Part shown: in pieces, positions 5,901 to 53,953 of the stretch
Numbering within the stretch: position 1 is the first letter of the stretch
Layout: the number at the start of each line of letters is the position of its first letter
Assembly (NCBI GenBank): GCA_965248925.1
Contig: CBDFLE010000006.1
Span: forward strand, 32,001-96,000
Source: Candidatus Multivoradales bacterium
GTDB taxonomy: Bacteria; Acidobacteriota; Thermoanaerobaculia; Multivoradales; J023
Length of the DNA stretch: 64,000 nucleotides
Direction of reading: 5' to 3'
Position numbers and translations under genes: made by a program
Notes under the pieces: model-generated
Databases searched by the model: none
What the model was told of the DNA's origin: nothing
What the model saw: the letters and a program-made list of their open reading frames with translations, nothing else

Positions 5901-6430
5901 AGCCGTACCGTGCCATCGTCAGAGCTACTGGCTAACCAGCGACCATCAAAACTGAAAGAGAGGGTCTCTACGGGGCCTGAATCGTCTTCTAGCCGAAAGC
6001 TCTCTAGACCCGTTTCTAGGTCCCACAATGCGACGACACCAGCCGCCCCTCCGGTCGCCACCTCTCTGCCGTTTGGATGCCAGGCGAGCGCGTAGAGTGC
6101 CTCTCTTGATTTGACGCCGGAGAGCAGTTCTGCAGTTTCTTCAATCGACTCAGCGAACTTCTCACCGCCGAGAACCAGTGGCAGTAGGTCTTGGGTCGGC
6201 TGCGCGGCAGCCGGCCCAGGCGTTGAGTAGACTGTTAAGAAAGCGCATGTAACCAGAGTTCCCCAGCTCGACCAAGCCCGGCACGACAAAGCGTGAAGCA
6301 TAGCTGCTAGAGACGAAGGCACAGGTTTTAGGCGAGAAGAAGACCCATCGTGAAACTTCGCCAAGCTAGACCCGGAGGACACGCTAACCGGACGCGACCT
6401 CGATCTTCTCCTCCATCGTGGACGAGGCAA
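2966..6430 (-). CDS. Membrane-anchored WD40-repeat / class III adenylate-guanylate cyclase
   Basis: Signal-like segment ending AAAQP, about 13 WD40 repeats, a beta-rich Ig-like region, TM VLYVILLLAALLSGTYL, then cyclase motifs VFTDVVRST, VKSTGDG, RVGVHVGEV, DAHGLVVHTASR. Alternative start ATG 6301. Confidence 0.85.
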   Translation of the reverse strand: MPRPRWRRRSRSRPVSVSSGSSLAKFHDGSSSRLKPVPSSLAAMLHALSCRAWSSWGTLVTCAFLTVYSTPGPAAAQPTQDLLPLVLGGEKFAESIEETAELLSGVKSREALYALAWHPNGREVATGGAAGVVALWDLETGLESFRLEDDSGPVETLSFSFDGRWLASSSDDGTVRLWDLKADRQPRRWSGWTVAFSPRADLLAIGSKDGTVTILDPRTGAAKLPAWSAHGERIAALAWHPNGHALATGSWDRTIKLWNAADGKPLGPTIKGAHDERVNAVSWGPKGEFLASASADSTVRVWEVDTGKMVRLFEGHRLAATAVVWHPDGHMVASASRDGSVRLWSYVAGTEVAQLENFGDEVFALSPSPSGRLLAAGTREGFVGIWSFSSSQLVRRLGGGVPLVKALAFGNGGQSLVAGSRGAIRLWDRNSKPAHGPWTFPLSGGKAPRCLALSAMGDTLAAGFQDGPITWWRRAADGARRFDRQAPLPAQTSAVAALAFSPDGGLLAAGFDDGMVQVLDLSTRELYGRFAQTSSRDNDMPQQRVQALAFSSDGRRLVGAFGGGGLYLWDLESKDLLSSGSRRLAGDALAVHFISPTRVGVVLRGGEVFVWVIGQQHASLAGRIDRNGLSAAAFGKAGDALATVGIGEGVVRIWSPCKVARCTLSSVLLGGDRGQWIDCRRKGRCYRYDDGTLLLRQSNSGVFESMPLQRAESAPDLQLAKRLPDQVRLTDGELAPLTLTLRNPGPQRAIWVKVNQVKSAVNTPVVFHPPPVQVVIEPGETAELRGEVSLQSSYEYPTTQEAALDLVVTSGGGKHLFLDPIQVINRVPKVDWQSARLSLVGNRLTVDLISIGDDSFSADHVAIRSPDYYGPFTTDAFLELAAGQRGRFVWDPRKEQAELSRRLDFVVYKTQLPAHRWSFADRRVLRFPFDRPVLYVILLLAALLSGTYLRTRILFRQQAGSDERRDGLWGWLGGSSSEYVQLAIVFTDVVRSTHLLNEIKAAAWAIVRNQHFDKTDTLAERHGGFVVKSTGDGRMIAFRSSIEALKFAVELEGRTGHEKITVRVGVHVGEVQVDRDDAHGLVVHTASRVMEIAREGGVCVTDQVKKDYDNTFHETEQIYSWMEISEDVGQGRLWEVRFRTDSGSLAGEDIHLVE

Positions 6431-6434
6431 GCTA

Positions 6435-7727
6435 TCAACGGGCCGCCGCTGTCAGGCAATCAATCGGCGGCCGCCCTTGTTCCAACGGCGAAGATTCCGG
6501 CTCGCTGATCCAATTCTCAGGAATCGTTGTTGCAGCCAGTAGTCGGTGCTTCTTGGCTCTTGGCAACCAGGAGTCGAGTTCGAGTGCTAGCCAGAAGGCC
6601 TCTCCTGACAGGACATACAAGTGGCGTGTCGCGCGCTGCGTCGGAAGTCGTACCTCACCTAGCACTTGGACGATGCCTTTGTTGAAATCCGGCTCCAACT
6701 TGACAACCCTCCAAGTCGTTACTCCAGGCCTCCGGCCCTCCGGCCCGCGGAGCAGAGCATAGAGGAACTCTCCAACGGAATAGAGTCCGACCGGGATTTT
6801 CATCCCCTCGACGCTCTTGTACATCTCGGCAACAGTGCCAGCTGGCGGATAAGGCATAGACTCGTTGGAGCCAGGAAACCCCTCTAGTCGGCCGCGCGAG
6901 CCGTCCCTCGTGTCGTAGTAATGCAGACTAGGGGAGGTGCTCATCTCCAAAAAGTACACCAAGTCGCCTGCGACAGCGATGAACTCGTGATGGAATGCGT
7001 AGTGTCGGTACCCAGGTACATCCCAGATCATCTGAGCCTTCGGCGTGACGTTGGCATTCCCTGGCGTCTGGACTTGGGTTAGGTAGAAACCTTCTCGAAC
7101 GACGTCAAGACGTCCGTCAATCCCTAGCGCGCCGTAGGCGAAGAACTGATCGGCCACTGGCTGCCAATCAAACATCGACATCACCCGATTGTCCTCGATC
7201 AGCTCTCCCGTCATTCCAACGCGGCTCACCAACTCTGTTCGACCCCGCTTGAGGAGACTTGCGTCGAACCACTGGATGGAGCTGGGAATACCGTTTCCAA
7301 GATTCAGATTTAGACCAACGAAGCCGCCATTGCTGCGCTTGATGCCGTAGACGATTTCACGGACCGGCTCATCGCCGACAGCGGTCAGCGACTCCTTTGG
7401 GTAGTAGTCGCCAGCGCGACTAGCCGACAAGCTCTGCTCGACCGTGACGGAGCCGCTTACGATATCGCGGCTCAACGCCAACTCAAGACTCTTCCGATCA
7501 AACATACTCACGAGCAACGCCCGCGATTGCTCGACATCGCCCCAGGTAGCGAAGTTGAACTTGGAAGCTTGCCAATCCGAGTTGACCGACTCGCGCCAAC
7601 AGCCTTCCGCCCGAGAACCGCCCGCGATCAATCCTCCTATCAAAGCGAGCAACAGGGAGAGGCCGAGACCTCCGGGGTACCAACGGTCGATACCCGAATT
7701 GAGCTGAACATTCGTTCGAGTAGTCAT
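6435..7727 (-). CDS. Secreted hypothetical protein, possibly beta-propeller-like
   Basis: Long ORF with hydrophobic signal (LGLSLLLALIGGLIAG) and beta-strand-rich body; start ATG 7727 chosen because it follows the upstream peptide gene's stop and GAGGG. Confidence 0.7.
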   Translation of the reverse strand: MTTRTNVQLNSGIDRWYPGGLGLSLLLALIGGLIAGGSRAEGCWRESVNSDWQASKFNFATWGDVEQSRALLVSMFDRKSLELALSRDIVSGSVTVEQSLSASRAGDYYPKESLTAVGDEPVREIVYGIKRSNGGFVGLNLNLGNGIPSSIQWFDASLLKRGRTELVSRVGMTGELIEDNRVMSMFDWQPVADQFFAYGALGIDGRLDVVREGFYLTQVQTPGNANVTPKAQMIWDVPGYRHYAFHHEFIAVAGDLVYFLEMSTSPSLHYYDTRDGSRGRLEGFPGSNESMPYPPAGTVAEMYKSVEGMKIPVGLYSVGEFLYALLRGPEGRRPGVTTWRVVKLEPDFNKGIVQVLGEVRLPTQRATRHLYVLSGEAFWLALELDSWLPRAKKHRLLAATTIPENWISEPESSPLEQGRPPIDCLTAAAR

Positions 7728-15474: not shown

Positions 15475-18069
15475 TTGCCAAGGAGCAGACTTCCGGTGAT
15501 GATGGACTCGGATCTAGCCGACTTCAAAATCGGCAATTGGTGGGTCAGACCGCAGCTCAATGAGCTAGAAAATAGCGATCAGCGCCGCCACCTCGAAGCG
15601 CGATCGATGGAAGTGCTGCTCTGTCTGGCGCGGCACGCGCCGACGGTGGTCAGCAAGGAACAGCTGATCGCCGAGGTGTGGACCGATTCCCCCTTCGTCA
15701 GCGACGACGTCATCAGCCACGCCATCTGGGAGCTGCGCAAGGCCCTGGGCGACTCGGCCCGCTCCCCAAGCTACATCAAGACCATACCCCGCAAAGGCTA
15801 CCTGATCGTCGCGGAAGTGCTGCGGCCGCAGGGTTCGGCGCTGCCCATCGAAGGTGCCCAGATCGACCACTACGACATTCACGAGGAAATCGGCCGCGGT
15901 TCGATGGGAGTGGTGTTCCGCGCCACCGACCGCCAGCTCGGTCGCACGGTGGCGATCAAGTTCCTGGCCACCGAGCTGACCCGCGACGACAAGGCCCGGC
16001 AGCGCTTTCACCGCGAGGCCCGGCTAGCCGCCTCGCTCGACCATCCCAACCTCGCCACCGTGCATCAGGTGGGAGAGACCGCCCAGGGTCAGATCTACTT
16101 AGTCACCAGCTTCTACAGCGGTGGCAGCCTGAAAGACCTTTTGGCCAAGGGGCCGGTACCCGCCCAAGAGGCGCTCGAGCTTGCCCGACAGCTCGCCGCC
16201 GGCCTCGGCGCCGCCCACAAGCGAGGCATCATCCATCGCGACATCAAGCCCGCCAATCTCCTGCTCGACGAGCACGGCCATCTCAAGATCGCTGACTTCG
16301 GCATCGCCAAGTTGCTCGGCGGCACCGACCTCACCCGCACCGGCGCGGCATTGGGCACGCCGGCCTACAAATCTCCGGAACAAAGCCGTGGTCAAGAAGT
16401 CGACCAGCGCACCGACCTGTGGTCCGTCGGTGTCGTTCTTTTCGAATTGCTCACCGGCCGCCGGCCCTTCGACGGCGAGTACGAGCAGGCGGTGGTGCAT
16501 TCGATCCTCTCGCACGAGCCGCAGGCGTTGGCGGAAGTCGGAGGCCAGCCGATCCCGGCGGAACTGAGCCGGATCGTTGGCAAGGCGATGGCGAAGGAGC
16601 CGGAGGAGAGGTATCAGAGTGGAGAGGAGATGGTGTCTGACTTGGCTCGTGCAAGTGTTCCCGGCGTAGTTACCAAAGATTCCCCGCGTGCTCGGGTCCC
16701 AACCGTCAAGTCTGCGATAGGGGTCTCGCTTGCGGCAACCGCTCTAATTGTGCTGGCGTGGGCTCAGCCTTGGAAGACGGTAGGTCCACTTAGGATGAGA
16801 GCCACTGAAGTCTTGGCAAACGGCCCATCGACAAACAACCAAGCTATCGCCCATTTCCACACCGGACAAAAATTCTGGCTCTCTGGAAATGACCCCAAGA
16901 ATCTGTCGGATGCACTCCGCCACCTAGAGCACGCAGCAGAGCTAGCCCCAGACTGGGCCGATGCCTATGCCCTACTCGCGCTCTTCAAATCCGACCGGTT
17001 TGCCGAAACTAAGCAGCAAGGTCTACTAGAAGATATTAGACAGCTTGCAGAACAAGTGAAAAAGCTGGACCCATCCAACGGCCTGATCAAGGTCGCAGAG
17101 GCGCGCCTTCACCTGCTCAATGGGCAATTCATCAAGGCCGAGCAACTCACAACATCAGCAATAGAGGCTCAATCGACCTGCCCAGAAGGATTCAACGAAA
17201 CATGCGACCTCGCGCACCTCTGGCGGGCTGAAGCAGAGTGGAGCCAAGGCCAGCAGGCAGATGCAGTGAGACGTCTCGAATCGTGTTTGGGAATCGGCAA
17301 TGGCCGCATCCGCTGCCGGCTCAAGCTAGCCCAACTCTACAATCTATCTGGAAACTCGACCAAAGCGGCTGTTCTCTATGAAGAAGTTCTGGCCCTGATA
17401 GACAAACAGACAACTGCTCTAAATGACCTGGGAGTCTATCGACTCGAGGCTCGCCAGTACCAGAAGGCGGTCGGAATCCTGACTCGGCTCGAGAAACTGA
17501 CACATGGACCGCGGGCAACACTGAACCTAGGGCACGCATATTACGGCCTCGGCTACTGGGAATCCGCTAGAAACTACTATCTCGAAGCGGACGAACGTTA
17601 CAAGTCGCTAGGACAAAACAACCCAATTCCTGCGGTCAGCATTGGAGACACGTTTCTAGAGGAGGGACAACCAGACATGGCTCTCCCATGGTTCGAAAAG
17701 GCAGCGCTACGCTTCGAGATGATTCTGCAAGGCCCCGTACCAGCTATCATTTGGCAGGCCCAGAACGCGGTATGCCTTGCCAAGCTCGGCAAAACCCGCG
17801 AAGCCCTACAACAGATCAACACACTAGTTCGTCACGAGGTACAATCCGAGCAACCCTTTGCACCGATCTTCTACTATGCTGCAAGAGTCTTCGCACTCGA
17901 CGGCGACCAGGAAAACCTATTCCGAATGGCGCGACTATCTTCCAAAGCTGGCAACGACCTCAATAGGCTGACCGATGATGCTGCCTTTATTGACTGGCGA
18001 AAGCACCAAGGCTATCAGATTCTCTTGGTCGATTTATCGTCGGGCACTCAGCCCCCGTTGTTATTCTGA
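15475..18069 (+). CDS. Winged-helix (OmpR/CadC-type) - Ser/Thr kinase - TM - TPR sensor
   Basis: LRKALGD...YIKTIPRKGY wHTH; GRGSMG, VAIK, HRDIKPAN, DFG kinase motifs; TM IGVSLAATALIVLAWA; TPR-like C-terminus. True start may be ATG 15499 or 15502. Confidence 0.9.
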   Translation: MPRSRLPVMMDSDLADFKIGNWWVRPQLNELENSDQRRHLEARSMEVLLCLARHAPTVVSKEQLIAEVWTDSPFVSDDVISHAIWELRKALGDSARSPSYIKTIPRKGYLIVAEVLRPQGSALPIEGAQIDHYDIHEEIGRGSMGVVFRATDRQLGRTVAIKFLATELTRDDKARQRFHREARLAASLDHPNLATVHQVGETAQGQIYLVTSFYSGGSLKDLLAKGPVPAQEALELARQLAAGLGAAHKRGIIHRDIKPANLLLDEHGHLKIADFGIAKLLGGTDLTRTGAALGTPAYKSPEQSRGQEVDQRTDLWSVGVVLFELLTGRRPFDGEYEQAVVHSILSHEPQALAEVGGQPIPAELSRIVGKAMAKEPEERYQSGEEMVSDLARASVPGVVTKDSPRARVPTVKSAIGVSLAATALIVLAWAQPWKTVGPLRMRATEVLANGPSTNNQAIAHFHTGQKFWLSGNDPKNLSDALRHLEHAAELAPDWADAYALLALFKSDRFAETKQQGLLEDIRQLAEQVKKLDPSNGLIKVAEARLHLLNGQFIKAEQLTTSAIEAQSTCPEGFNETCDLAHLWRAEAEWSQGQQADAVRRLESCLGIGNGRIRCRLKLAQLYNLSGNSTKAAVLYEEVLALIDKQTTALNDLGVYRLEARQYQKAVGILTRLEKLTHGPRATLNLGHAYYGLGYWESARNYYLEADERYKSLGQNNPIPAVSIGDTFLEEGQPDMALPWFEKAALRFEMILQGPVPAIIWQAQNAVCLAKLGKTREALQQINTLVRHEVQSEQPFAPIFYYAARVFALDGDQENLFRMARLSSKAGNDLNRLTDDAAFIDWRKHQGYQILLVDLSSGTQPPLLF

Positions 18070-19982
18070 GGACCCGTTTGAGCTGGTTCTGGGTCCGGCT
18101 GGGGGCCTTGGCCACGGGGATCTGCCTCCTGTCGACCTGGCCGCAGGTCGCGCCCACGCCTTCCTCGTCGACGCCTACTTCTCTCAGCCTTGGGGCGGTT
18201 CCTCAATTCTCTGAAACTGCTCCGCGGTTCGAAGACAGGCCGCAACGAAAAACGTAGCTCATCGGCCAAAACTTTGAGATCCGAAGCCAAAGCAAACTCG
18301 CCGAAAGGCGAGCCGGGCGTGTCGCCGGCAAAGATCATTCCCACGGCGTAGTAGACATTCCGTACCGTCCGATTTGCCCTATCGACTTCCTTAGAGGCAA
18401 AGTCACTGGCATTGATTCCAACCTGAGCCAATTGGCCTTCGAGATCCGCCAACGCTTCCTCATCCAGAGGCTCGAGGTCTGCGAACAGCTCTAGCCAAAG
18501 CCCGGCCAGCTCCGGGCGATCCAATTCCAGACCGAGAAAGTACTCTTTGAATTTCTCAAACTTACCTGGTGACCTACAAAAACCCCACAATGCTATATAG
18601 ATCAGCTCTAGATCATCCAGTGGGAACGAGGTCAGGACTAGAGAACCGGAGTCTCCAACCTGACTGACATCTTGACCGGTTAGCAGGGGGGCTATGTGAA
18701 ACTGGCTCTTAAAATACCGCACAACCCCGCCGCCATAGTTGATATTGGTTGCTAGATGGACGCCGTCGACAAAACCCTGAGTAAACCCGGTGGTCCGCCC
18801 CCACTTGCGGACTTCCATGTTGAGCCTAGGCTTGCGGTAGCCGGAGATCGGATGCCACATCCCGAGTATCTCCCCACTTGCATAGCTGCGTCTGTGATCA
18901 AGCTCAGCAATAGCAGCATCACCGTACTCACCAAGATGCCAACGCTTGAGACGGGCCACCACGTCGCGCTTAGTGCCACCGTCGAACAGCGCCGGCTGAT
19001 AAGTTGGCTGGCCAACTTGGGCCGATGCGGTGTTGGCTAGGACATGCCAGTTGCTGAGCACACACGGCGTACCGTCAGTCTTGTCCCATACCACCGTCCC
19101 GAGCGTACCTGCTTGTCCGCTGACGCTACCGACACTAATACCGCCAACCAGTGGGTTGACAGGCCCCTTGCCGGTGAGTAGCAATTCTTCGTTGCTGAGT
19201 TCGTCACTACCAGCCGGGGGTTCAACAAACACACCGCTCTCGGCATCCCCACCGGGATGTTGTACAGACGGAAAATATCGAGCATCTATGACGTCTATCG
19301 GCACACCGCAGACACAGAGCCTACAGTGTGACCAAGGATCCCCTGGGTGGTCTTCAGGACAGGGATCCCAGCAAGTAAGATCGCTGGGCAAGACTCCTGA
19401 CACTGGATACTGCATATATTGACCCCACCAGCTCCGCCAGGGATTGAGACCATTTCGTCGGCAGAATCTTCTTCGTTTTTTCCTTTCCACCGCATCTACC
19501 CTATTCAAACCGATCCGGTGCGCCACCAGTGCATACAGAGGGTTCGAGAGATCAGGTAGTGCCGATTGACTCATCAAGTGCGGAGACAGCTTGTTCTCTA
19601 CATGAATACGGAGTGCCAGCACATTACAGAACTTGCGTTCACGCTCGCGAACCGCGAATCCGACATCAACCGCGCTGACTCCTTGGAATCTTAGAATCTG
19701 CCGATGCACGCGATCATGGACCCGGATGGCATGATCAATGGCATCCTGGCCGTGAAGTGGATAGCAACACCAATGCCAGTGTCCGCAGCAGCCAAATTTT
19801 TTGTCCCTTTGTTTCTTGACAGGTGACCTATATCCTCGCAAGTCCTTGTAGTCTTCCCAGATTTTCCGGTTCTTCAATCTTCCAAAACCATCGAGGTGAC
19901 AACCTTTTGGCACCCAGATAACCAGATCTTCAACTTCAAGGCCGAAATTCAGCTGCTGCCGGTAGCTGGTCTCCAAGCTCAC
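18048..19982 (-). CDS. NAL1-like trypsin-family serine protease
   Basis: GVSAVDVG..LRIHVENK..GVPIDVI N-terminal domain; GTLG, LSNWHVL (His), GDAAIA (Asp), KWGRTTGFTQG, GDSGSLV (Ser), AVGMIFAG. Confidence 0.8.
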   Translation of the reverse strand: MSLETSYRQQLNFGLEVEDLVIWVPKGCHLDGFGRLKNRKIWEDYKDLRGYRSPVKKQRDKKFGCCGHWHWCCYPLHGQDAIDHAIRVHDRVHRQILRFQGVSAVDVGFAVRERERKFCNVLALRIHVENKLSPHLMSQSALPDLSNPLYALVAHRIGLNRVDAVERKKRRRFCRRNGLNPWRSWWGQYMQYPVSGVLPSDLTCWDPCPEDHPGDPWSHCRLCVCGVPIDVIDARYFPSVQHPGGDAESGVFVEPPAGSDELSNEELLLTGKGPVNPLVGGISVGSVSGQAGTLGTVVWDKTDGTPCVLSNWHVLANTASAQVGQPTYQPALFDGGTKRDVVARLKRWHLGEYGDAAIAELDHRRSYASGEILGMWHPISGYRKPRLNMEVRKWGRTTGFTQGFVDGVHLATNINYGGGVVRYFKSQFHIAPLLTGQDVSQVGDSGSLVLTSFPLDDLELIYIALWGFCRSPGKFEKFKEYFLGLELDRPELAGLWLELFADLEPLDEEALADLEGQLAQVGINASDFASKEVDRANRTVRNVYYAVGMIFAGDTPGSPFGEFALASDLKVLADELRFSLRPVFEPRSSFRELRNRPKAERSRRRRGRRGRDLRPGRQEADPRGQGPQPDPEPAQTGPQNNNGG

Positions 19983-20185
19983 GGTCCACCTCCAACTAGT
20001 AGTCGCTTCTCTGCTAGCAATCTCTGAGAGGTCCTTGGTGGCATATCCAAGCCCCTACGCCCCTCTTCTCAGAACTCCCACACTTCCTCTTCAGCGCAAT
20101 CACAAGCCTATCTCCCCCACCCCACCTAGATTTCGCCGAGTTCAAACGCGCTTTCAGCGGCAGTCAACACGACAGGAGGTGGCGA

Positions 20186-21028
20186 ATGCCGAACAACGAG
20201 ACCCGAGGGGCTAGACTCTTCCGCTCTAAGCTGGAGCAGATCCAGCAAACCATCACCCGCAGCGCCGCCCACAAGCGCCTCTCGCCAGACGACCGCGACG
20301 AGCTCTACAGCGCCGTCATGCTGAAGCTGATCCAGAACGACTACGCCATCCTCCGTCGCTTTCGTGGCGACAGCAGCTGGCGCACTTTCCTGACGGTAGT
20401 TATCCAGCGGGTGCAGCTCGACCAGCGAACCCAAAAGTGGGGCCGGTGGCGACCCTGCGCTGCTGCCCGACGACTCGGGCCGGTGGCGGTGGAACTGGAT
20501 CGCCGCATCTCCCGCGACGGGCTCGATCCCGAGGAAGCGGTCCAGACCATGGCGGCCGGCAGCAACAAACACTCCACTGAGACTCTGCGCAGGACTGCCG
20601 AGAACATCCGTCGCCGTCACGGCCGGCGGCAGATGATCAGTGACCAAGTGTTGGCTGTCTTGCCCAGCGACGAGCACACGGACCGGCGAATCGAGCTAGC
20701 GGAGGGCCGCGCGCGCAATGGGTTCCTGGCCACCGCTCTCGGCGGTTTGCTGGAAGGGCTCTCAGTTGAGGACCGAGAGCTGCTGGATCTGCGCTTCCAT
20801 CAGGGTTGGACGGTGGCCCGAATTGCTACCTCGCTCGACCGCGACCCGCGGGTGCTCTACCGCCACTTCACCCGCCTGCTGCGATGCTTGCGGCAGGAGT
20901 TCGAGGCTCAAGGCTGGGATCGGCAGGAGATCCGGACTTGCCTCGATCAGCACCAGGTCGAACCGCTCCCCGATCTGCTCGGGCCGGCACACCAACCGGA
21001 GAGCAACTTCAGTCGTAGTTTGGGCTAA
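20186..21028 (+). CDS. ECF-like sigma-70 factor
   Basis: Region 2-like LKLIQNDYAILRRFRGDSSWRTFLTVV; region 4 LSVEDRELLDLRFHQGWTVARIA; GGAGGT SD. Confidence 0.8.
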   Translation: MPNNETRGARLFRSKLEQIQQTITRSAAHKRLSPDDRDELYSAVMLKLIQNDYAILRRFRGDSSWRTFLTVVIQRVQLDQRTQKWGRWRPCAAARRLGPVAVELDRRISRDGLDPEEAVQTMAAGSNKHSTETLRRTAENIRRRHGRRQMISDQVLAVLPSDEHTDRRIELAEGRARNGFLATALGGLLEGLSVEDRELLDLRFHQGWTVARIATSLDRDPRVLYRHFTRLLRCLRQEFEAQGWDRQEIRTCLDQHQVEPLPDLLGPAHQPESNFSRSLG

Positions 21029-42795: not shown

Positions 42796-44607
<1,812 letters not shown>

Positions 44608-44633: not shown

Positions 44634-45038
44634 TCAAGGAACAATTTCAAACACCTCAACCCCCTCCGGCCGGTAGACGCTAAAGCCACGCCGGTCGAGG
44701 GTGAAAACGCGCTTCAACCGGTCCCGCTCGGCTACTCTGACCAGTGCCGCATCGGCTAGGTCCATAGGTAGATCTCGGTACTTGCTCATCAATTCCCGCA
44801 TGCGGGGAAAGTCCGTCGCGTCAAGCGGCGAGAGCACGACAACACCGCGACTGAGTAAGTTCCACAGTGCTTCCTGCCCACGCCAGTCGAATCCGAGTAG
44901 ATACATGGCTTTCGTGACCGCCGGCCAGACGGTCAGCATCGGTTCTTTCAAAGACTCGAACAGTACGCGGCAGGAGTGATGCTGAGAATCGTCAGCGTGC
45001 AGCAAGGCCACTAATGGCCCCGCATCCACCAAGATCAA
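44634..45038 (-). CDS. vapC: PIN-domain toxin (VapC), possibly attenuated
   Basis: ILVDAGPLVA, PMDLADAALV, VFTLDRR; the expected TEA reads TKA. Confidence 0.88.
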   Translation of the reverse strand: MILVDAGPLVALLHADDSQHHSCRVLFESLKEPMLTVWPAVTKAMYLLGFDWRGQEALWNLLSRGVVVLSPLDATDFPRMRELMSKYRDLPMDLADAALVRVAERDRLKRVFTLDRRGFSVYRPEGVEVFEIVP

Positions 45039-45283
45039 CGTCGCCGCTCCAGTAGCTCGCGGAACTTGCGACCGGTCTCCTGAGACAGATCCGGCGGGCC
45101 GCCGCTGACGCAGCCGATAAGATCACGCGCCAATTCCGCCGGATTCGCCGTGGTCAAGGCGCGCCGTTCGGCCATCTCTTGGATCGCCAAGCGTACAACC
45201 TCGGATTTGGGCCGCTGAACTACGCGGACCAAGAGATTCAACGCTTCTTCAGTTCTTCGGTCAAGTCTTACACTGGTAGGCAT
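45035..45283 (-). CDS. Ribbon-helix-helix antitoxin (CopG/VapB-like)
   Basis: TSVRLD..KSEVVRLAI, DLIGCVSGGPPDLS; overlaps the toxin start. Confidence 0.82.
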   Translation of the reverse strand: MPTSVRLDRRTEEALNLLVRVVQRPKSEVVRLAIQEMAERRALTTANPAELARDLIGCVSGGPPDLSQETGRKFRELLERRR

Positions 45284-45352
45284 TCGGGACTCCCTGTAGG
45301 ACAAACCGTACTACATCTCGACATCTCGATGCAATTGCCCAATCGAGCAGTA

Positions 45353-46675
45353 CTACCCTGTCACCAGATCCACTGCCAAGGCATCGAGCGCCCGCTGTAG
45401 GGGGAAGAAGAAAGAGGTCTCGCCGCTGCCGGCGAAGGCCATGGCGATGGCGTAGCCGTCGGCGGCGATCAGCAAGGCGCCACAATCGCCAGGCTCGAGC
45501 ATCGGCGTAGTCTCGATCAAGTCGCCGAAGACAATCGGCACGGTGTTGCCATCGCCGGTGCCGCGCAATGGCCCACCGACGCAGCAGACCGGTAGCGGTA
45601 GCTCGATCTGGGCATCGATCTGCAACACCTCTCCGTGGACCGCGCCGCTGGTCCGGCCGACCATCGACACGGCTTCGCCGTCGACCGCAGGGCGGACTCC
45701 GCGCGGCACCCCGAGCCCGGAAATCTTGGCGCTGACATCAGTCACTTTGCGAACCGCTGCGATCAACGCAATCAGGTTGCTGGCAGCTCTGGCCGGCTGA
45801 TCGTGAGCGACGATGAAACGGCTGACTTTGGCCACGATATCGGCACGGGTGCCGCCATCAGGCCGGGCGGGCTGGATGACCGCGTCACCGGGGTTGGGAA
45901 GGGTGCCGCCGGCACAGAATGGGGTCAGGTCGGAGAGGATGGCGAGGGCCTTCGGATTACCCCGGTCGGTCACCAATGCGCCGAAGGTGGTGGCGCCGCC
46001 GCGGTAGTGGCCCAAGCTAGCGCCAGGCGACGCGGGCCGCACCCGTACCTGGAAAGGTGAGGCGGGCTGCGTCGCGGCAGGCGGTGAATCCGAGACCGGG
46101 TCAAGCAGAGCGGTAGAAACCGCCGCTGCCGGCACTCCCTCCGCAAGCTCGATCAACTTGGCATAGCCACTCTCGCGCAGCTCCAGCGGGCTGAGCACGA
46201 TCATGTCGCGCAAGATGTCGACTATCCGCGCAATCATGTCGCGGATGTCATCGTAGAGATTGAGGTCCTCGCCGATGCCCTGCAAGTTGGCCAGGCCGAC
46301 CGAGCGCATTTTGACTTCGAGTTCTTTCTTCTTGTCTTCCCAATGCTTGATGTAGTCGAGCAGGTCAATCGCGTCGTAGATTCGCGCATCACTCAACACT
46401 AATAGGAAAATTCGCTGCTTGAAGTCACCGTGCGCGAATACTTGCAGCAATTCGGACATGCAGAATCTTGAACGCAGGTACTTGTCCGAGATCAGCAGCA
46501 CTACCGCTCGGCCGTGGCCAATCTTTGCCATGAACTCGCGGATGCTGTCTTTCGCTCCCAACTCCCTCTTGTCTCGTCGCAACCGGATATGGTGCGCCGC
46601 CAGGGCCTGCTCGATCTCATCGGCGACTTGCTCACTCTCGCCACCCCAGGCGTAGGACAGATAAATCTCACTCAT
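45353..46675 (-). CDS. TIR domain fused to degenerate NAL1/trypsin-like protease domain
   Basis: IYLSYAW..RD..SIREFM..ISDKYLRSRFCMSEL TIR; Pro/Ala linker; TFGALV, VIQP..DGG, GRTSG, PGDCGALL, AMAFAGS. Confidence 0.85.
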   Translation of the reverse strand: MSEIYLSYAWGGESEQVADEIEQALAAHHIRLRRDKRELGAKDSIREFMAKIGHGRAVVLLISDKYLRSRFCMSELLQVFAHGDFKQRIFLLVLSDARIYDAIDLLDYIKHWEDKKKELEVKMRSVGLANLQGIGEDLNLYDDIRDMIARIVDILRDMIVLSPLELRESGYAKLIELAEGVPAAAVSTALLDPVSDSPPAATQPASPFQVRVRPASPGASLGHYRGGATTFGALVTDRGNPKALAILSDLTPFCAGGTLPNPGDAVIQPARPDGGTRADIVAKVSRFIVAHDQPARAASNLIALIAAVRKVTDVSAKISGLGVPRGVRPAVDGEAVSMVGRTSGAVHGEVLQIDAQIELPLPVCCVGGPLRGTGDGNTVPIVFGDLIETTPMLEPGDCGALLIAADGYAIAMAFAGSGETSFFFPLQRALDALAVDLVTG

Positions 46676-46755: not shown

Positions 46756-47931
46756 ATGGATGCCGAACTACTCGCAAGCGCCGAGCCCAAAACCGGCGCC
46801 GGGCTTTACCTGCACATTCCCTTCTGCTCCGCGATTTGCCCTTACTGCGATTTCGCGGTGCTGGTGGGAAACGAGCGTCGGCTGGCGGCGTTCGGCTCCT
46901 TGCTGGAGCAAGAAATTGGCCGCTGGAAGGCGACGAGTTGGAGTTTCGACACCGTCTACCTGGGTGGGGGTACGCCGTCGATCTTGCCCGCTGACACCCT
47001 CGCCGAGGTGTTTGCTCAGCTCGCCGACAACCTCACCCTCGAGGCGGATTGCCGATTCTACTTGGAAGCCAACCCGGAAGATGTCGACCGCCCACGGCTC
47101 GAGGCCTGGCAACGACTAGGAATCAGCACCTTGAGCCTCGGAGTGCAGGCTTTCGACGATCGGAATTTGGCCTTCCTCGGCCGCCGCCATGACCCTGCAC
47201 AAGCTCGGAGAGCGGTGCGCCTGGCTCTGGGATCCGACTTTGAAACCGTCTCACTGGATCTGATCTTCGGCCTACCTGGGCAAGATCTGGAGTCGTGGCG
47301 CCGGACTCTGCAAACCGCGATCGACCTCGGCCCACAGCATCTTTCTTGCTACCAGCTCGAGATCCACCAGCGCACCCCGTTTGGCCGCTTGCAACGCCGA
47401 GGTGAGCTGCGCGAAGCTCCCGAACCACGCCAGGCCGAACTTTTTCGGTTCACTCACCAACGCCTTGCCGACGCCGGCTGGCAAGGCTACGAGGTGTCGA
47501 ATTTCGCCCGCGCCCCGAAGCATCGCTCGCACCACAACAGCAAGTATTGGGACCACACCCCGTACCTCGGCCTGGGACCCTCGGCCCACTCCTTCGCTGG
47601 CCGGCGGCGTTGGTGGAATGTACGCCATATGGAAGCCTGGGCACGACAATTGCGCGACACCGGCGACCCCTTGGAGGGCTGCGAAAATCTGCGCAACGAG
47701 CAACTTGCGTTGGAGCGCCTGATGCTCGGCCTGCGCACCAGCGACGGCATCGACCTGCGACGCTTCCAACGGCGCTACGGCATCGACTTGGTGAGAACCA
47801 ACCAGCGACGCATCGACACTCTGCGCCGCGATGGCTTGCTCGCCGAAGACGCCGATTTCCTGCGCCCCACCCTCGATGGCCTAGCGGTGGCTGACGGCCT
47901 AGCGGTGAATTTTGAAGTCCGCGCCGACTAG
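46756..47931 (+). CDS. hemW: Radical SAM heme chaperone HemW (HemN-like)
   Basis: LYLHIPFCSAICPYCDF, GGGTPS, EANPE, SLGVQ, YEVSNFA, HNSKYW, GLGPSAHS. Confidence 0.93.
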   Translation: MDAELLASAEPKTGAGLYLHIPFCSAICPYCDFAVLVGNERRLAAFGSLLEQEIGRWKATSWSFDTVYLGGGTPSILPADTLAEVFAQLADNLTLEADCRFYLEANPEDVDRPRLEAWQRLGISTLSLGVQAFDDRNLAFLGRRHDPAQARRAVRLALGSDFETVSLDLIFGLPGQDLESWRRTLQTAIDLGPQHLSCYQLEIHQRTPFGRLQRRGELREAPEPRQAELFRFTHQRLADAGWQGYEVSNFARAPKHRSHHNSKYWDHTPYLGLGPSAHSFAGRRRWWNVRHMEAWARQLRDTGDPLEGCENLRNEQLALERLMLGLRTSDGIDLRRFQRRYGIDLVRTNQRRIDTLRRDGLLAEDADFLRPTLDGLAVADGLAVNFEVRAD

Positions 47932-48043: not shown

Positions 48044-49390
48044 CTAGTTTGCGCTGGGAATCACGCCAGTGTCGGTGATCAGCGGGTTGACATCGTCGCA
48101 AGCCGAGGTCAGCGGTAAGGCCGAGTAGCCGACCTGGAACAGGCCCAAGGCGCTGATCGTGGTCGTTACATGGCTCTGCGAGATGTTGCCATCTGAGCCG
48201 AAGTCAACATCGAAAGCGACCCCGTCGTTCGGAATGTTCAGGTTGAGGAACGTCCAACCGGACTCGTAAGGAATCGCCAGATCGCCGTCGCCGATCTTCG
48301 AGCGCTGGGTCTCAAGCGGGAAACAAGCCGGATCGAAGTCCGGATCCGGCGGCGAGATCACGCCACCACCGAAGATGAAGCATATCTCGACCGCGTTCTC
48401 TTGCTCGTCGAACGCTACGACCTCGGTCTCGTTCATTGGGTTCTACGACGGACCCGCACCAGGGCCAGAGCCGCAATTGTAGAACTGCTGAGTGTCAGAG
48501 GTGGTCGAGTCACGCCACACCAAGAGGTCTGTGCCACCGGTGAAACCAGCGTTCTCGATGTAACGAGTCGCCCAGGTGGTAGCCAACGGCTCGCGATTGT
48601 CCGAGCCGGTCAGGCCTGGATCGTAGCGACCGTAGAAGGTGTAACCCGTCGGCGTCGAGCCGGCGTTGAACTGCGGATCGGCCTCGATGGCCACCAGCGG
48701 CTCGCCAAACGAGAAGGCGTTCACCTGATCGACGATGTAGAAGTCGCCCCACAGCTGGTTGATGTCGTTGGCGATACCCACGCCACCGTCCACGAAGTAG
48801 CCGGTCTCGTTCGGGAACACCGTCGAACACTGGTTGACGTTATCGATCGTGATGTAACCGCGAGCGATGGCATCACCGTGATCCTCGCCCATGCAGCCCA
48901 GACCCAGCACGTTCTGGCCAGTGTGGCCATTCTGCAAGCGGGTCAGGTTGGCCGAGGAAACCACCGGGTTGTTGAACGGGAATACGCCCAAGCAGCCAGG
49001 GAAACTACCGTCCCACTGCGGGTTCAAGCCGTGCGGGCTGATCAAGTCGGCGCCGTCATTCTGGGCATCGGCCGTGACCGGCAGGTTGCCCTGGAAGACG
49101 TCGAACAGGTTGACCGGCACGATGTCGTAACCGCTAAGGAAAACGTCGCAGTCAATCGTCGGCTGGGTCCAATCGGTCCACAGCGTGACGTGAGCCAGCG
49201 CCGGAGCGGCTGACGCGTTGTTGATGGTGAACAGCGTGGTGGTACCCACCGCGTTGGTGTAGTCGACCTCAAAGTAAGGCAGCAGTAGGGTCGCCGCCGG
49301 CACGTTGTCAATCGTGCACAGCTCGGCGAAGGCCTGTCCGCCGAAGGCAAGGACACTAGCCACTAGTAAAACTAAAACGATCTTTTTCAT
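48044..49390 (-). pseudogene. Secreted acidic protein, copy A, with in-frame amber stop
   Basis: Same length and frame as copy B; TAG at 48443-48445 aligns to TGG (Trp) in copy B. Confidence 0.85.
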
Positions 49391-49668: not shown

Positions 49669-50418
49669 TTGGAGGATGGTCCATTGAAAGTCGACCTTGA
49701 TGCAGCCGGCGGCGAGCTGCGTTTGTTACTCAGCAGCCGTGCCGCAATCGGCGAGCTTTTTCGCCGTGCCGAGGCCGAAGCCGGGCTGTTCGTCGAACTG
49801 GAGCGTGAGCTACCGCAGTTCCACCGTCTGTACCTCGAGGCTCGCGCCCGGCCAGCGATCCGCTTCCGTTGCTCGGTCGAGGTCTTGCAGGTGTTTCCCA
49901 GCGGTTCTGGTTTCGGCACCGCGCTACGCTTGGTGGAGTGGACGCCAGAACGGCAGCGCCAACTACAGCGCGCATTGGACGGCGGCGGTGAGACCGACGA
50001 GTCGGTTTCACCTGCTTTCCGCATCCGCCAGCTGAACCCGAACGAGCGTTTTCGCTTGGCTACCCGGGCAACGCGCAACGAACGCCAGATCCTACTTCGG
50101 GATACTTCCCCGCAAGTCTTGATGGGCCTGCTCTCCCACCCCAGGCTGGAGACTCAAGATGTGGTGGCGATCATCAAATCGCCTCACAGCTCCGCCGGCG
50201 TATTAAAACGAATCGCCGAGAATCGCAAGTGGATGATGCATCCGGAAGTCCGCACTGCCGTGGTCCGCAACCAAAAGACGCCAACCCCGCTGGCGATTCG
50301 CCTGCTCGATCGCCTACGCAGCGAAGATCTGCGGTGGCTGTCGAAGCTCGGTAACACTCGCGAGTCTCTGCGCCGTGCCGCGCTGCGGGTCTACCTACAG
50401 CGTACTGGCCGACGGTAG
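49669..50418 (+). CDS. Hypothetical protein with C-terminal helical domain
   Basis: Coherent ORF; ERQILLRD..VLMGLLSHPRL..AVVRNQKTP helical pattern. Confidence 0.8.
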   Translation: MEDGPLKVDLDAAGGELRLLLSSRAAIGELFRRAEAEAGLFVELERELPQFHRLYLEARARPAIRFRCSVEVLQVFPSGSGFGTALRLVEWTPERQRQLQRALDGGGETDESVSPAFRIRQLNPNERFRLATRATRNERQILLRDTSPQVLMGLLSHPRLETQDVVAIIKSPHSSAGVLKRIAENRKWMMHPEVRTAVVRNQKTPTPLAIRLLDRLRSEDLRWLSKLGNTRESLRRAALRVYLQRTGRR

Positions 50419-50560: not shown

Positions 50561-51907
50561 CTAGTTTGCGCTGGGAATCACTCCAGTGTCGGTGATCAAC
50601 GGGTTGACATTCTCGCAAGCCGAGGTCAGCGGCAACGCCGAGTAGCCGACCTGGAACAGGCCAAGGGCACTGATCGTGGTCGTCACATGGCTCTGAGCCA
50701 ACGAACCGTCGGAACCGAAGTCGACGTCGAAGGCGACGCCAATGTCGTCGATGTTCAAGTTCAAGAACATCCAACCCGACTCATACGGAAGGGCCAGGTT
50801 GCCGTCGCCTACCGTCGCCCGCTGGGTCTCCAGCGGGAAGCACGGCGGATCCACGTCCGGGTCCGGAGGCGAAATCACTCCGCCACCCAGGTCGAAGCAG
50901 ATCTCCACTGCGTTCTCCTGCTCGTCGAACGCCACAACCTCGGTCTCGTTCAGCGGGTTCCACGACGGGCCAGCACCAGGGCCAGAGCCACAGGCGTAGA
51001 ACTGCTGGGTGTCAGAGGTCGTCGAGTCACGCCACACCAAGAGGTCGGTACCACCGGTGAAACCAGCGTTCTCGATGTAACGAGTCGCCCAGGTGGTGGC
51101 CAACGGCTCGCGGTTATCCGAGCCGGTCAGGCCTGGATCGTAGCGACCGTAGAAGGTGTAACCGGTAGGCGTCGAGGCGGCGTTGAACTGCGGATCGGCC
51201 TCAATCGCCACCAACGGCTCACCGAAGGAGAAGGCGTTGACCTGGTCGACAATGTAGTAATCGCCCCACAGCTCGTTGATGTCGTTGGCAATGCCGACGC
51301 CGCCGTCTACGAAGTAGCCGGTCTCGTTCGGGAACACCGTCGAACACTGGTTGACGTTGTCGATCGTGATGTAACCACGAGCGATGGCGTCACTGTGATC
51401 CTCGCCCATGCAGCCCAGACCCAGCACGTCCTGGCCGGTGTGGCCATTCTGCAAACGGGTCAGGTTGGCCGAGGAAACCACCGGGTTGTTGAACGGGAAT
51501 ACGCCCAAGCAACCAGGGAAGCTACCGTCCCACTGCGGGTTCAAGCCGTGCGGGCTGATCAAGTCGGCGCCGTCGTTCTGGGCATCGGCCGTGACCGGCA
51601 GGTTGCCCTGGAAGACGTCGAACAAGTTAACCGGCACGATGTCGTAGCCAGTGAGGAAAACGTCGAAGTCGATCGTCGGCTGGGTCCAATCGGTCCACAG
51701 CGTGACGTGAGCCAGCGCCGGAGCGGCTGACGCGTTGTTGATCGTGAACAGCGTGGTGGTACCCGCCGCGTTGGTGTAGTCGACCTCGAAGTAGGGCAGC
51801 AAAAGAGTTGCGGCCGGTACATTGTCGATCGTACACAGTTCGGCGAACGCCTGCCCGCCAAGAGCGAGGAGGCTAGCCACTAGTAGGACTAGAACTATCT
51901 TTTTCAT
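50561..51907 (-). CDS. Secreted acidic protein, copy B (448 aa), candidate surface protein
   Basis: Signal peptide ending AFA; CTIDNVPAATLLLPYFEVD; D/N/T/G-rich with no Lys in the mature part; GGAGA SD. Confidence 0.88.
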   Translation of the reverse strand: MKKIVLVLLVASLLALGGQAFAELCTIDNVPAATLLLPYFEVDYTNAAGTTTLFTINNASAAPALAHVTLWTDWTQPTIDFDVFLTGYDIVPVNLFDVFQGNLPVTADAQNDGADLISPHGLNPQWDGSFPGCLGVFPFNNPVVSSANLTRLQNGHTGQDVLGLGCMGEDHSDAIARGYITIDNVNQCSTVFPNETGYFVDGGVGIANDINELWGDYYIVDQVNAFSFGEPLVAIEADPQFNAASTPTGYTFYGRYDPGLTGSDNREPLATTWATRYIENAGFTGGTDLLVWRDSTTSDTQQFYACGSGPGAGPSWNPLNETEVVAFDEQENAVEICFDLGGGVISPPDPDVDPPCFPLETQRATVGDGNLALPYESGWMFLNLNIDDIGVAFDVDFGSDGSLAQSHVTTTISALGLFQVGYSALPLTSACENVNPLITDTGVIPSAN

Positions 51908-52246
51908 ACCTGCTTGATCTCCCCAGGTTGAAAAGGGGTCTCTGATGTCGAATCTAGAGCCACGGGCCACGGGCGCGGGCTCCGGTCTGTGGAGCGCTTC
52001 GGCTCCCGTCCTGTATCTCGGTACGGGCACTCACCTCCTGTCTAAAGACTTCTACCGAGACTAGCACGAATGTGGAGGAAATTTGCAACCCACTTGTAGC
52101 CAACCCCCCATCAGCAAAAGAAAAAGGCGCCCTGTATAGAGCGCCCAGCAAAAATCAGGCCCAAACCAACGGGTTGATCCCTCCCGCAGTAGAGATCAAA
52201 GTAAATCCGGTCCCAAGCCCCGCCGACTCAGAACACGGCCGTAAAC

Positions 52247-53953
52247 TCAGATCACCATCGCCAACCGCTTCGACATCACGGCGCCGGTGGTGGGATCGTG
52301 TAGGGAAATCAACAAACGGTGCGACTTCTTGCGCAGTTTGAGCTGGGTCTCAAAGACCACCACCTCACCCTGCTCGGGCCTCGAACCGACTTGGATAGTT
52401 ACCGGAACTACGGAGATATCGGCCCTGTCGCCACCCTCGTCGGTCGCCGCCACGCGCAGCTCGAGCGACGCGGCGTACCCCCCCTGATGCGCTAGCACCG
52501 CCACCTGGTCCAGCGGAATCTCCAGGCGAAGGGGTACGAGGATTTTGCGTAGGCCCGCGGCACTCGGTGCACCGAGTTCGGCGCCAAAGTCCTCCGCGAA
52601 CGGCAACGGTGTATCGAAAAGCTGGGCACTCTCGACCAACATAGTCACTTCGCTCTGCCGGGAGAGGTCGGTGAAGCTGGCACGGCTGCGCACTTTGAGC
52701 CCCTTGACTCGAGTCTTGACCTCGATCCGATGCTGCTCGTCGTTCTCCCGCCACTGGGGAGTGAAGCCCAGCCAGTAGTACGAGCGAGTGTCGTCCAGGA
52801 CGCCTTCGAGGGCACTCAAGCTGGCACCATCGATGAACGCACGGCCACCGGTTTGAGCTGCCAGATAGTGGAGAGAATCCTCGTTCAGCCAATCCCGTTG
52901 ACGAGACCGCTCGTCGGCGATAGAAGCGGCGAAGACACTGCGATGCTCGGCGCTGCCGTAAGTACGGCGTTCGAGCCCAGCGACATCGACCGGATAGAGG
53001 GTATAACCGAGACGGTTGGCGGTATCGATCAAGGGGCGGAAGGCGCGACGGCCGCCAGCAAGCCCCGAATAGGTGTGATTCTGCTGCGTGGAGTTGTAGT
53101 CGTAGCTACCGGCGGCCCAGGCTTCACCCGAGATCGGCCAGCCACCAGATAGCAGCAGCATGACTTTGCGGCCATCGGGCCTGGCGAAGCCGCGCAACGC
53201 CGAGGCGGCGGCAGCGGCCACCCGGGCGACCTGCAACTGACGCTCGCGGCCATAAGTGAGGGCGCCAGCGGGATAGTCGTAAGCGCCGCGGAAGCCAACA
53301 TTGGCGAAACCCCTGCCGCCGAAACCACTACCCAAACCACGGCGGTAGAAGCGGTGGGTCGAGTCCAAGTTGCGCTCCTGGGCCAACCAGCGCAGCCCGT
53401 AAGATCGGCGCTCCTTGGCACCTTCCAACACCCGCGTCAGCTCGCGGGTCGACTTCGACCAGGTTGACAGCAACTGCACCTGGCCACCATCAAAAGCAAC
53501 CACCGCCATGCTGTCCTTAGGTCCCAGCTGCGACAGCTGGCCGATCACCCGGTCGATCACCCGATTGCGGTGGGACGGCAAGGCAAAAAGATCGTCGATG
53601 AACACCAAGAAACGGGTACCGACCGTATCGCCAGCGCGAAACGCCGGCAAGGCCACGGACTGGGAGTGAACTTGGGAGGTCACCGCCTGTCCCGCCGAAA
53701 CCTCGGTGAAGAAGTCGATCGGCACCTCGGTGCCATCGATCAGCAGGGCGAAGTCCTGGGGACCGAGACCCACCACCCGGTCGCCCTTCTGGGTCACCAC
53801 TACTTCCAGATTCAGCACCCGGACGTCGACGATCTCGCCGAAGGCAGCAGACAAATCGGCCGCCTCGTCGGCAGCGATCGGCAGAGCCATGAGCAAGAGC
53901 AACATCACCGCCAGGGTGAGTGTTGTGAGTTTGGCGAAGCTTGAATTTTTCAT
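52247..53953 (-). CDS. VWFA-related (Acidobacterial-type) exported protein
   Basis: VDVRVLNLEVVVT, FLVFID, RKVMLLLSGG, LAAQTGG, SYYWLGF, VRSR. Confidence 0.88.
   Translation of the reverse strand: MKNSSFAKLTTLTLAVMLLLLMALPIAADEAADLSAAFGEIVDVRVLNLEVVVTQKGDRVVGLGPQDFALLIDGTEVPIDFFTEVSAGQAVTSQVHSQSVALPAFRAGDTVGTRFLVFIDDLFALPSHRNRVIDRVIGQLSQLGPKDSMAVVAFDGGQVQLLSTWSKSTRELTRVLEGAKERRSYGLRWLAQERNLDSTHRFYRRGLGSGFGGRGFANVGFRGAYDYPAGALTYGRERQLQVARVAAAAASALRGFARPDGRKVMLLLSGGWPISGEAWAAGSYDYNSTQQNHTYSGLAGGRRAFRPLIDTANRLGYTLYPVDVAGLERRTYGSAEHRSVFAASIADERSRQRDWLNEDSLHYLAAQTGGRAFIDGASLSALEGVLDDTRSYYWLGFTPQWRENDEQHRIEVKTRVKGLKVRSRASFTDLSRQSEVTMLVESAQLFDTPLPFAEDFGAELGAPSAAGLRKILVPLRLEIPLDQVAVLAHQGGYAASLELRVAATDEGGDRADISVVPVTIQVGSRPEQGEVVVFETQLKLRKKSHRLLISLHDPTTGAVMSKRLAMVI

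Follow-up and report, generated by a model that had tools for sequence, protein, structure and literature searches.

Several single-chain TIR effectors of bacterial immunity, including TIR-SAVED (CBASS), TIR-STING, TIR-APAZ (SPARTA) and ThsB (Thoeris), are fused to a sensor or regulatory domain. A glutamate of the TIR domain has a role in NAD+ cleavage, and activation of bacterial TIRs requires assembly or oligomerisation. In this study, we analysed a 64,000-nucleotide stretch of Candidatus Multivoradales bacterium (Acidobacteriota, Thermoanaerobaculia; GenBank assembly GCA_965248925.1, contig CBDFLE010000006.1, positions 32,001 to 96,000 of the forward strand; hereafter the window), in which an open reading frame (ORF) at 45353-46675 on the minus strand encodes a protein, designated P0001, that joins a TIR domain to a protease-like domain lacking the catalytic triad. 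Like the above systems, P0001 combines a TIR domain retaining the catalytic Glu with a non-TIR domain that may control assembly. However, its partner is a dead chymotrypsin fold instead of the SAVED, STING, SLOG or Argonaute partners of the known TIR systems, and no cyclase, Argonaute or ThsA gene was found adjacent to it. In Thoeris, the TIR protein ThsB is encoded beside ThsA (SIR2/SLOG or Macro/TM), whereas the neighbours of P0001 are a ribbon-helix-helix (RHH) gene, a PIN gene, lepA and hemW, the search for ThsA being a local one.

According to the portions of Kaur, Burroughs, Iyer and Aravind (eLife 2020; PMC7159879) covered here, inactivity is frequent among the trypsin domains of conflict systems, and the inactive domains were suggested to be dominant-negative regulators or peptide-binding domains; EAD7 was defined in the same paper. 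The covered text of Kaur et al. (2021; PMC8195603) includes trypsin, TIR, SIR2 and caspase among the swappable effector domains. As far as these portions go, the inactive trypsins resemble the domain of P0001 in having a trypsin fold without catalytic residues and in their association with TIR, SIR2, CHAT and EAD domains, but they occur as fusions with vWA, or with an EAD, in ternary systems that have MoxR and VMAP/iSTAND genes in the vicinity, whereas P0001 is without vWA, MoxR, EAD or NTPase and is accompanied only by an RHH-PIN pair. Neither P0001 nor any of the ORFs scanned up to approximately 10 kb away showed a vWA, EAD or AAA domain. Neither a stand-alone protein composed of a TIR and an inactive trypsin nor a treatment of such domains as one clade was found in the covered text of PMC7159879 and PMC8195603, although the source data of the former may list it. 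Thus, the view of an earlier note that this gene had not been described holds for the TIR fusion as far as this text goes, but not for inactive trypsins in general, which PMC7159879 had noted and whose EAD7 is carried by members of the clade described below. Other trypsin-fold immune fusions are found among protease-activated effectors and include the trypsin-MBL/HamMAB nuclease-protease pairs (PMC12799240), the system of bioRxiv 10.1101/2025.09.03.673762 and the CARD-trypsin gasdermin systems (review PMC13434031); in the covered text on these systems, the proteases are catalytically active and cleave a pro-effector, whereas the triad is missing from P0001. Because of this absence, any role of its dead domain would be non-catalytic. 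Taken together, the P0001-type TIR-pseudo-protease is real and conserved, while the general idea of inactive conflict trypsins is already known.

The layout of P0001 and its diagnostic positions are as follows (pLDDT, predicted local distance difference test):

45353..46675, minus strand: complete ORF of 440 amino acids (TIR, helical extension, disordered linker, pseudo-protease), ATG start, 0 internal stops
46340..46666, minus strand: TIR core, residues 4-112, Pfam TIR_2 (PF13676), E 3.6e-11, 44.1 bits against a cut-off of 28
46451..46453, minus strand: Glu75 codon (CMSEL motif); by alignment with RUN1, the position of the catalytic Glu in TIR NADases
46136..46339, minus strand: post-TIR helical extension, residues ~113-180, with long helices at 103-125 and 128-158 in the predicted structure (pLDDT 55-78)
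46073..46132, minus strand: linker rich in Pro, Ala and Ser, residues 182-201 (pLDDT <50)
45356..46063, minus strand: pseudo-protease, residues ~205-440, a NAL1-like or S1E-like chymotrypsin double barrel (pLDDT ~97; Foldseek and VIA-align)
45923..45925, minus strand: Thr251 at the catalytic His column (LSDLTPF versus LSNxHV; clade alignment)
45770..45772, minus strand: Ile302 at the catalytic Asp column (SNLIALIA versus NxxDAAIA; clade alignment)
45482..45484, minus strand: Cys398 at the nucleophile column, with the GDxG frame retained (clade alignment)
45548..45577, minus strand: clade-specific loop insertion of ~10 residues, 367-376 (GGPLRGTGDG), missing from most active relatives in the alignment

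The motifs that the earlier note had read from the translation are present as it described them: CMSEL (residues 72-76) keeps its Glu, and LSDLTPF (247-253), NLIALIA (300-306) and GDCG (396-399) place Thr251, Ile302 and Cys398 in the columns of His, Asp and Ser. The resemblance of P0001 to proteases is far beyond chance, and the three triad substitutions are real. A difference in GC content between the TIR part (55%) and the dead-domain part (67%) was considered as a sign of a recent chimera and rejected; it reflects amino-acid composition, because third-position GC is similar in the two halves (0.75 versus 0.79).

An AlphaFold2 model of P0001 was built from a 60-sequence alignment, and the matches listed in the structural search fell on the C-terminal domain, so that the identity of the TIR half rests on sequence. 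Foldseek found rice NAL1 (E 1.2e-11) and S1E proteases (TM scores 0.74-0.81, target-normalised). By VIA-align, the best superposition was with the Streptomyces fradiae protease (Z 24.0, root-mean-square deviation (rmsd) 1.8 Å over 182 residues), followed by S. griseus protease B (Z 23.9), alpha-lytic protease (Z approximately 23) and NAL1 (Z 20.7), with aligned spans from residue 205 or 215 to 438 or 440. These matches show the chymotrypsin fold of the C-terminal domain to be intact. NAL1, streptogrisin and alpha-lytic protease (PA clan, S1-type) have the same fold over 179-211 residues (Z 20-24, rmsd 1.7-3.1 Å), and these proteases share the RxRPA...SIGH, QPxxxDGG, GDxG and FAGS motifs with the dead domain; P0001 differs from them by Thr, Ile and Cys in place of His, Asp and Ser, by the ~10-residue loop insertion and by the fusion with TIR. 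No Pfam match was obtained for residues 204-440 even at E≤10, including Nal1_C (PF25819) and Trypsin_2, and in the nearest ESM Atlas clusters Nal1_C was annotated on 14-19% of members.

An active relative is present in the same window:

18048..19982, minus strand: NAL1-like, paralog-like comparator protease of 644 amino acids with intact His, Asp and Ser (motifs SNWHVL, GDAAIAEL and GDSGS)

The use of this protein as an in-window comparison, as proposed in the earlier note, was borne out: its triad is intact and it is homologous to the C-terminal half of P0001 (BLASTP against residues 212-350, E 4e-8, 30% identity over 142 amino acids), and no Pfam, PADLOC or NCBIfam family was assigned to it above threshold. 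Its third-position GC of 0.56, compared with 0.66-0.84 in the other genes checked, hints at foreign origin. The comparator gene is convergent with the gene of an 864-residue protein, with a 22-bp overlap (region 15475-21028); by eye, TPR-like repeats and a Ser/Thr kinase core (HRDIKPANLL, DFG) can be recognised in the latter, and a nearby ORF at 20186-21028 resembles an ECF-type sigma factor.

To what extent triad loss is shared by homologs was addressed by an exhaustive HMMER search with residues 201-440, which returned 1821 relatives at E≤1e-3, including 16 at E≤1e-30. The alignment was composed of 151 domains, which were recovered from the listed HMMER matches and P0014. His, Asp and Ser were all intact in 109 of the 151 aligned relatives, and both His and Asp were missing from all the best-scoring relatives within the top 18 (P0002 and P0015-P0030). 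In a maximum-likelihood tree built from 75 of the 143 domains of 190-300 residues, taken in the order of their ids, 15 triad-less rows formed one clade with a Shimodaira-Hasegawa-like approximate likelihood ratio test (SH-aLRT) value of 98, within which P0001 and P0002 were grouped at 99. A set of 31 non-identical clade domains, including sequences from fetched loci, was then compared with 19 active relatives, with the following residues at the triad columns:

His column: S19 T4 N3 Y1 L1 in the clade (His in 0/28); His in 19/19 active comparators
Asp column: S22 P3 A2 I1 L1 W1 in the clade (Asp in 0/30); Asp in 19/19 active comparators
Nucleophile column: S17 C11 G2 in the clade; Ser in 19/19 active comparators

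As the C-terminal domain of P0001 is without the triad His and Asp, it cannot act by a serine-protease mechanism. Conservation elsewhere in the domain is considerable: G396, D397 and G399 are present in all 30 clade sequences, Asn300 is a clade-specific residue found in 28 of 29 members, and among 16 clade sequences with 38-68% identity 23 columns are invariant and a further 20 nearly invariant. P0002, the nearest homolog over the full length (66% identity), shows Thr, Leu and Cys at the His, Asp and Ser columns. It also carries an extra C-terminal tail of ~110 amino acids (residues ~430-548), which is absent from P0001 and shows a weak TPR_12 match (E 2e-4, below cut-off). According to their record titles, the fetched clade loci come from Thermoanaerobaculia (Acidobacteriota), Anaerolineae/Anaerolineales and Ardenticatenaceae metagenome-assembled genomes, and the clade thus spans at least two phyla, Acidobacteriota and Chloroflexota. 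The dead domain is an old, selectively maintained pseudo-enzyme, and the loss of the triad, whose conservation in homologs the earlier note had proposed to test, proved to be a property of the whole monophyletic group. The refutation named in that note, a triad retained by homologs, therefore fails.

The architectures of clade members were derived from Pfam scans and precomputed domains, and their gene contexts from 16 loci in two contig collections (psi, the dead protease domain; P and L numbers denote proteins and loci, respectively):

TIR-psi with the TIR type of P0001: P0001, P0002
TIR-psi with a different canonical TIR type: P0015, P0020, P0163, P0164 (= L003, with a shorter start), L043
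CHAT-psi-TIR: P0016, P0018, L038 (= L049), L045, L046, L048
psi-TIR-SIR2: P0019 (= L047), L051
psi-TIR-TIR: P0165, and the fragment P0028
CHAT-psi-SIR2: P0029
CHAT-psi: P0024, P0026, L040, and L052, which is cut at the contig end
EAD7-psi: P0021, P0023, P0027, L039, L050
EAD7-psi-SIR2: P0022
psi alone or fragments: P0017, P0025

The dead domain is therefore the constant element, while the fused enzymes vary. In immune genes, a constant domain with varying enzymes generally marks the sensing or regulating module. Even between closely related dead domains the TIR has been exchanged, because the domain of P0163 is 61% identical to that of P0001 but is attached to the other TIR type (and has GDSG). 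PADLOC recognised only the effector parts of clade proteins (SAVED_TIR, PDC-S66, ThsA-like SIR2 and SAVED_CHAT), and the SIR2 fused to the dead domain is ThsA-like. In two loci (L047:58-2175, which is P0019, and L051:3-1781), the dead domain, a TIR and a ThsA-like SIR2 are found in a single polypeptide; Thoeris has these two enzyme types on separate proteins, whereas here both are joined in one chain.

Several neighbours of clade genes were also recorded. An upstream aminotransferase and a downstream, secreted-looking protein of ~765 residues were considered as partners of the CHAT-psi-TIR genes and rejected, as their presence reflects the synteny of closely related contigs. Directly downstream of a TIR-psi gene and on the same strand, an 870-residue ORF with no Pfam match was observed in L037 (1920-4532) and L044 (2051-4663), which count as one observation because their TIR-psi proteins are 99.8% identical. 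In L039, a 1188-residue protein with Trypsin_2 and vWA domains (4106-7669, minus strand) is encoded divergently beside the EAD7-psi gene; His, Asp and Ser motifs can be seen in it by eye and EAD7 was undetected, and this single locus was not used as evidence for a partnership.

With regard to the TIR half, the best solved relative by sequence match is the TIR domain of plant RUN1 (6o0w, E 8e-5), in which the Glu of CLDELV aligns with Glu75; another RUN1 entry, 7s2z, has Ala in that column and is presumably a catalytic-site mutant. The catalytic Glu is retained in all 11 same-type TIR homologs aligned (P0002-P0008 and P0010-P0013; motif CMxEL). The TIR cassette of P0001, through the helices to approximately residue 180, also precedes an AAA_35 ATPase domain in P0003 and an unrelated domain of ~190 residues in P0004-P0013, and P0003-P0013 align with the first 37-52% of P0001. 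It is probable that the TIR of P0001 is an effector that consumes NAD+ or makes a signal.

Based on these observations, P0001 may be a TIR effector gated by a peptide- or protein-binding pseudo-protease, and we give this sensor or regulator reading as a whole a probability of roughly 0.5. P0001 would then be a cytoplasmic, single-chain conflict protein, probably anti-phage and of the abortive-infection type. Its TIR would consume NAD+ or make a signal once assembled, and the dead domain would bind, in its former substrate cleft, a peptide or protein that is either invader-derived or protease-generated, with ligand binding controlling the assembly of the TIR into its active form. Two elements of the active enzymes are retained in the dead domain: the GDxG frame, which builds their oxyanion hole, and the FAGS strand, with which the substrate pairs. 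Both the immune role and the direction of control are suggested by homology and architecture. The role of sensor, decoy or oligomerisation scaffold that the earlier note proposed for the dead protease fits a constant module on swappable effectors, while the role itself is one that we infer. A wider possibility, which we put forward only tentatively, is that the clade is an undescribed family of pseudo-enzyme immune sensors that switch on the fused TIR, ThsA-like SIR2 or CHAT; in that case, the fossil cleft might trap a peptide or protein of the invader, such as a phage protease inhibitor or the tail of a structural protein, or a cleavage product.

The genomic locus of P0001 was compared with those of relatives. 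The genes concerned are listed below:

45035..45304, minus strand: RHH (CopG-like) antitoxin-like gene, 48 bp downstream of P0001, RHH_1 E 0.0046, 17.3 bits, below the cut-off of 20.5
44634..45038, minus strand: PIN-domain (VapC-like) gene with a 4-bp overlap with the RHH gene, PIN E 3.4e-7, 31.3 bits against a cut-off of 23.6
42796..44607, plus strand: lepA, left border of a 2.1-kb insertion, from the locus comparison
46756..47931, plus strand: hemW/hemN-like radical SAM gene, right border, from the locus comparison

The 2.1 kb between lepA and hemW is filled by the P0001, RHH and PIN genes, all on the same strand. Of 23 lepA loci in relatives belonging to the family or order of this bacterium, 14 have hemW immediately after lepA, and the remaining nine either stop early or continue with another gene; no PIN, RHH or TIR-psi match was found in any of the 23. 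Because it is missing from the lepA-hemW junction of relatives, the three-gene block is a lineage-specific insertion, and the P0001 locus is accessory. A search of 40 relatives gave no full-length counterpart of P0001; the best of the partial hits was a TIR-psi protein of the other TIR type (46% identity over residues 186-439). Only short imperfect repeats at chance level flank the insertion, with no recognisable mobile-element ends, and neither a promoter-like site nor, in the 48-bp gap between P0001 and RHH, a terminator-like site was found. The RHH-PIN pair may be of the VapBC type, in which a PIN toxin follows a small DNA-binding antitoxin and the genes overlap; here the two genes overlap by 4 bp, and PIN is above its cut-off and RHH_1 below. 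Further along the window, four consecutive ORFs (48443-49390, 49669-50418, 50561-52030 and 52247-53953; 249-568 amino acids) had no Pfam match at E≤0.001. The 8.0-Mb source genome contains 31 CHAT and 13 TIR_2 matches, mostly in frames of ~600-1800 residues, and its repertoire of conflict proteins is unusually large.

Several observations weigh against a gated immune effector. P0002 is the sole homolog found with both the TIR type of P0001 and the dead domain. The TIR part of the model is of moderate confidence (pLDDT 51-83), PADLOC matched P0001 weakly and in the TIR part only (SAVED_TIR, E 2.8e-5; PDC-S66 weaker) and had no model matching the dead domain, and NCBIfam gave no match to P0001. 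In the EAD7 fusions, the dead domain occupies the position that Kaur et al. assign to effectors and not to sensors, which would fit a regulatory or dominant-negative role as well as a sensor. Full-text literature searches found no report of an activity, ligand or phenotype for any clade member. The genes within ~10 kb are housekeeping (a pyridoxal phosphate-dependent decarboxylase, a GyrB-like protein, a PMT_2 glycosyltransferase, lepA and hemW) or unannotated, with only the RHH-PIN pair being conflict-like, and the defence-island setting that the earlier note had suggested looking for is thus unsupported here. In addition, Ser or Cys at the nucleophile column of 28 out of 30 clade sequences leaves some chemistry possible.

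Whether the C-terminal domain is still a protease, with Cys398 or Ser as nucleophile and a non-canonical partner such as Asp249, has to be considered in view of the last point, together with the GDxG frame found in 30/30 sequences and the acidic residue (Asp or Glu) at position 249 in 28/28 clade members, where active enzymes have Asn. However, no clade-specific conserved His was found in the dead-domain alignment, the best candidate being His223 (22/27), which is common to the active clade; the nucleophile column is occupied by Gly in two members; at the Asp column, P0001 has Ile and the others Ser, Pro, Ala, Leu or Trp; and the positions of Lys338 and Thr346, which never vary among the 19 active comparators, are unconstrained in the clade. 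We therefore regard residual proteolysis as very unlikely. Even less credit can be given to local decay, in which a protease fusion would have lost its activity recently and be turning into a pseudogene. The missing triad alone would suit such a history, but P0001 has an intact 440-residue frame and a fold predicted with very high confidence, replacements of the same type occur in P0002 at 66% identity, and the clade is monophyletic across at least two phyla. Local decay is therefore refuted by the clade-wide loss of the triad, its monophyly and the conservation of the domain.

A different mode of control was also considered, in which the dead domain is a dominant-negative regulator, decoy or docking partner of active proteases (NAL1-like or trypsin-like paralogs, or CHAT) and the TIR is switched by a separate protease system. 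In section 12 of PMC7159879, such a role was proposed for inactive trypsin domains, and some clade members have EAD7, a recruiting adaptor, and others a CHAT protease on the same polypeptide. The 31 CHAT matches in the genome and the active relative 26 kb away in the window would provide candidates, and the exposed clade-specific loop, which often contains Arg-x-Thr-Gly-Asp, could speculatively be a protease site. On the other hand, P0001 has no EAD or CHAT domain and the inserted block no protease gene, the sole active relative detected in the genome with P0001 as query is weakly similar (30% over 142 residues), and the syntenic CHAT-psi-TIR loci show no conserved partner gene beyond housekeeping synteny. 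We consider this arrangement the main rival, although clearly less likely than the gated effector. Still less likely is a non-antiviral role, in which P0001 would take part in regulated self-killing or in developmental or stress-related NAD+ signalling, or would be a toxin that forms, with the RHH-PIN genes, a three-gene cassette for addiction or stress. The cassette version would agree with the common strand of the three genes, with the terminator-free gap of 48 bp and with their joint absence from the lepA-hemW junction of relatives; against a non-antiviral role, the modular swapping of effectors is typical of immune genes.

Infection sensing by bacterial TIR and SIR2 effectors is understood for few sensor domains. 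If the dead domain of P0001 were a passive scaffold only, the protein would extend the range of TIR fusions only modestly. If, on the other hand, the clade is indeed a family of immune sensors, P0001 would be its minimal, one-gene example, and non-catalytic serine-protease homologs of animal immunity offer a parallel. As a single gene of 440 codons, P0001 would provide an experimental handle on the inactive trypsin domains flagged in 2020, and a conserved pseudo-protease that constantly accompanies several effectors, both NAD+-depleting and caspase-like, would represent a sensor or regulator of a new kind.

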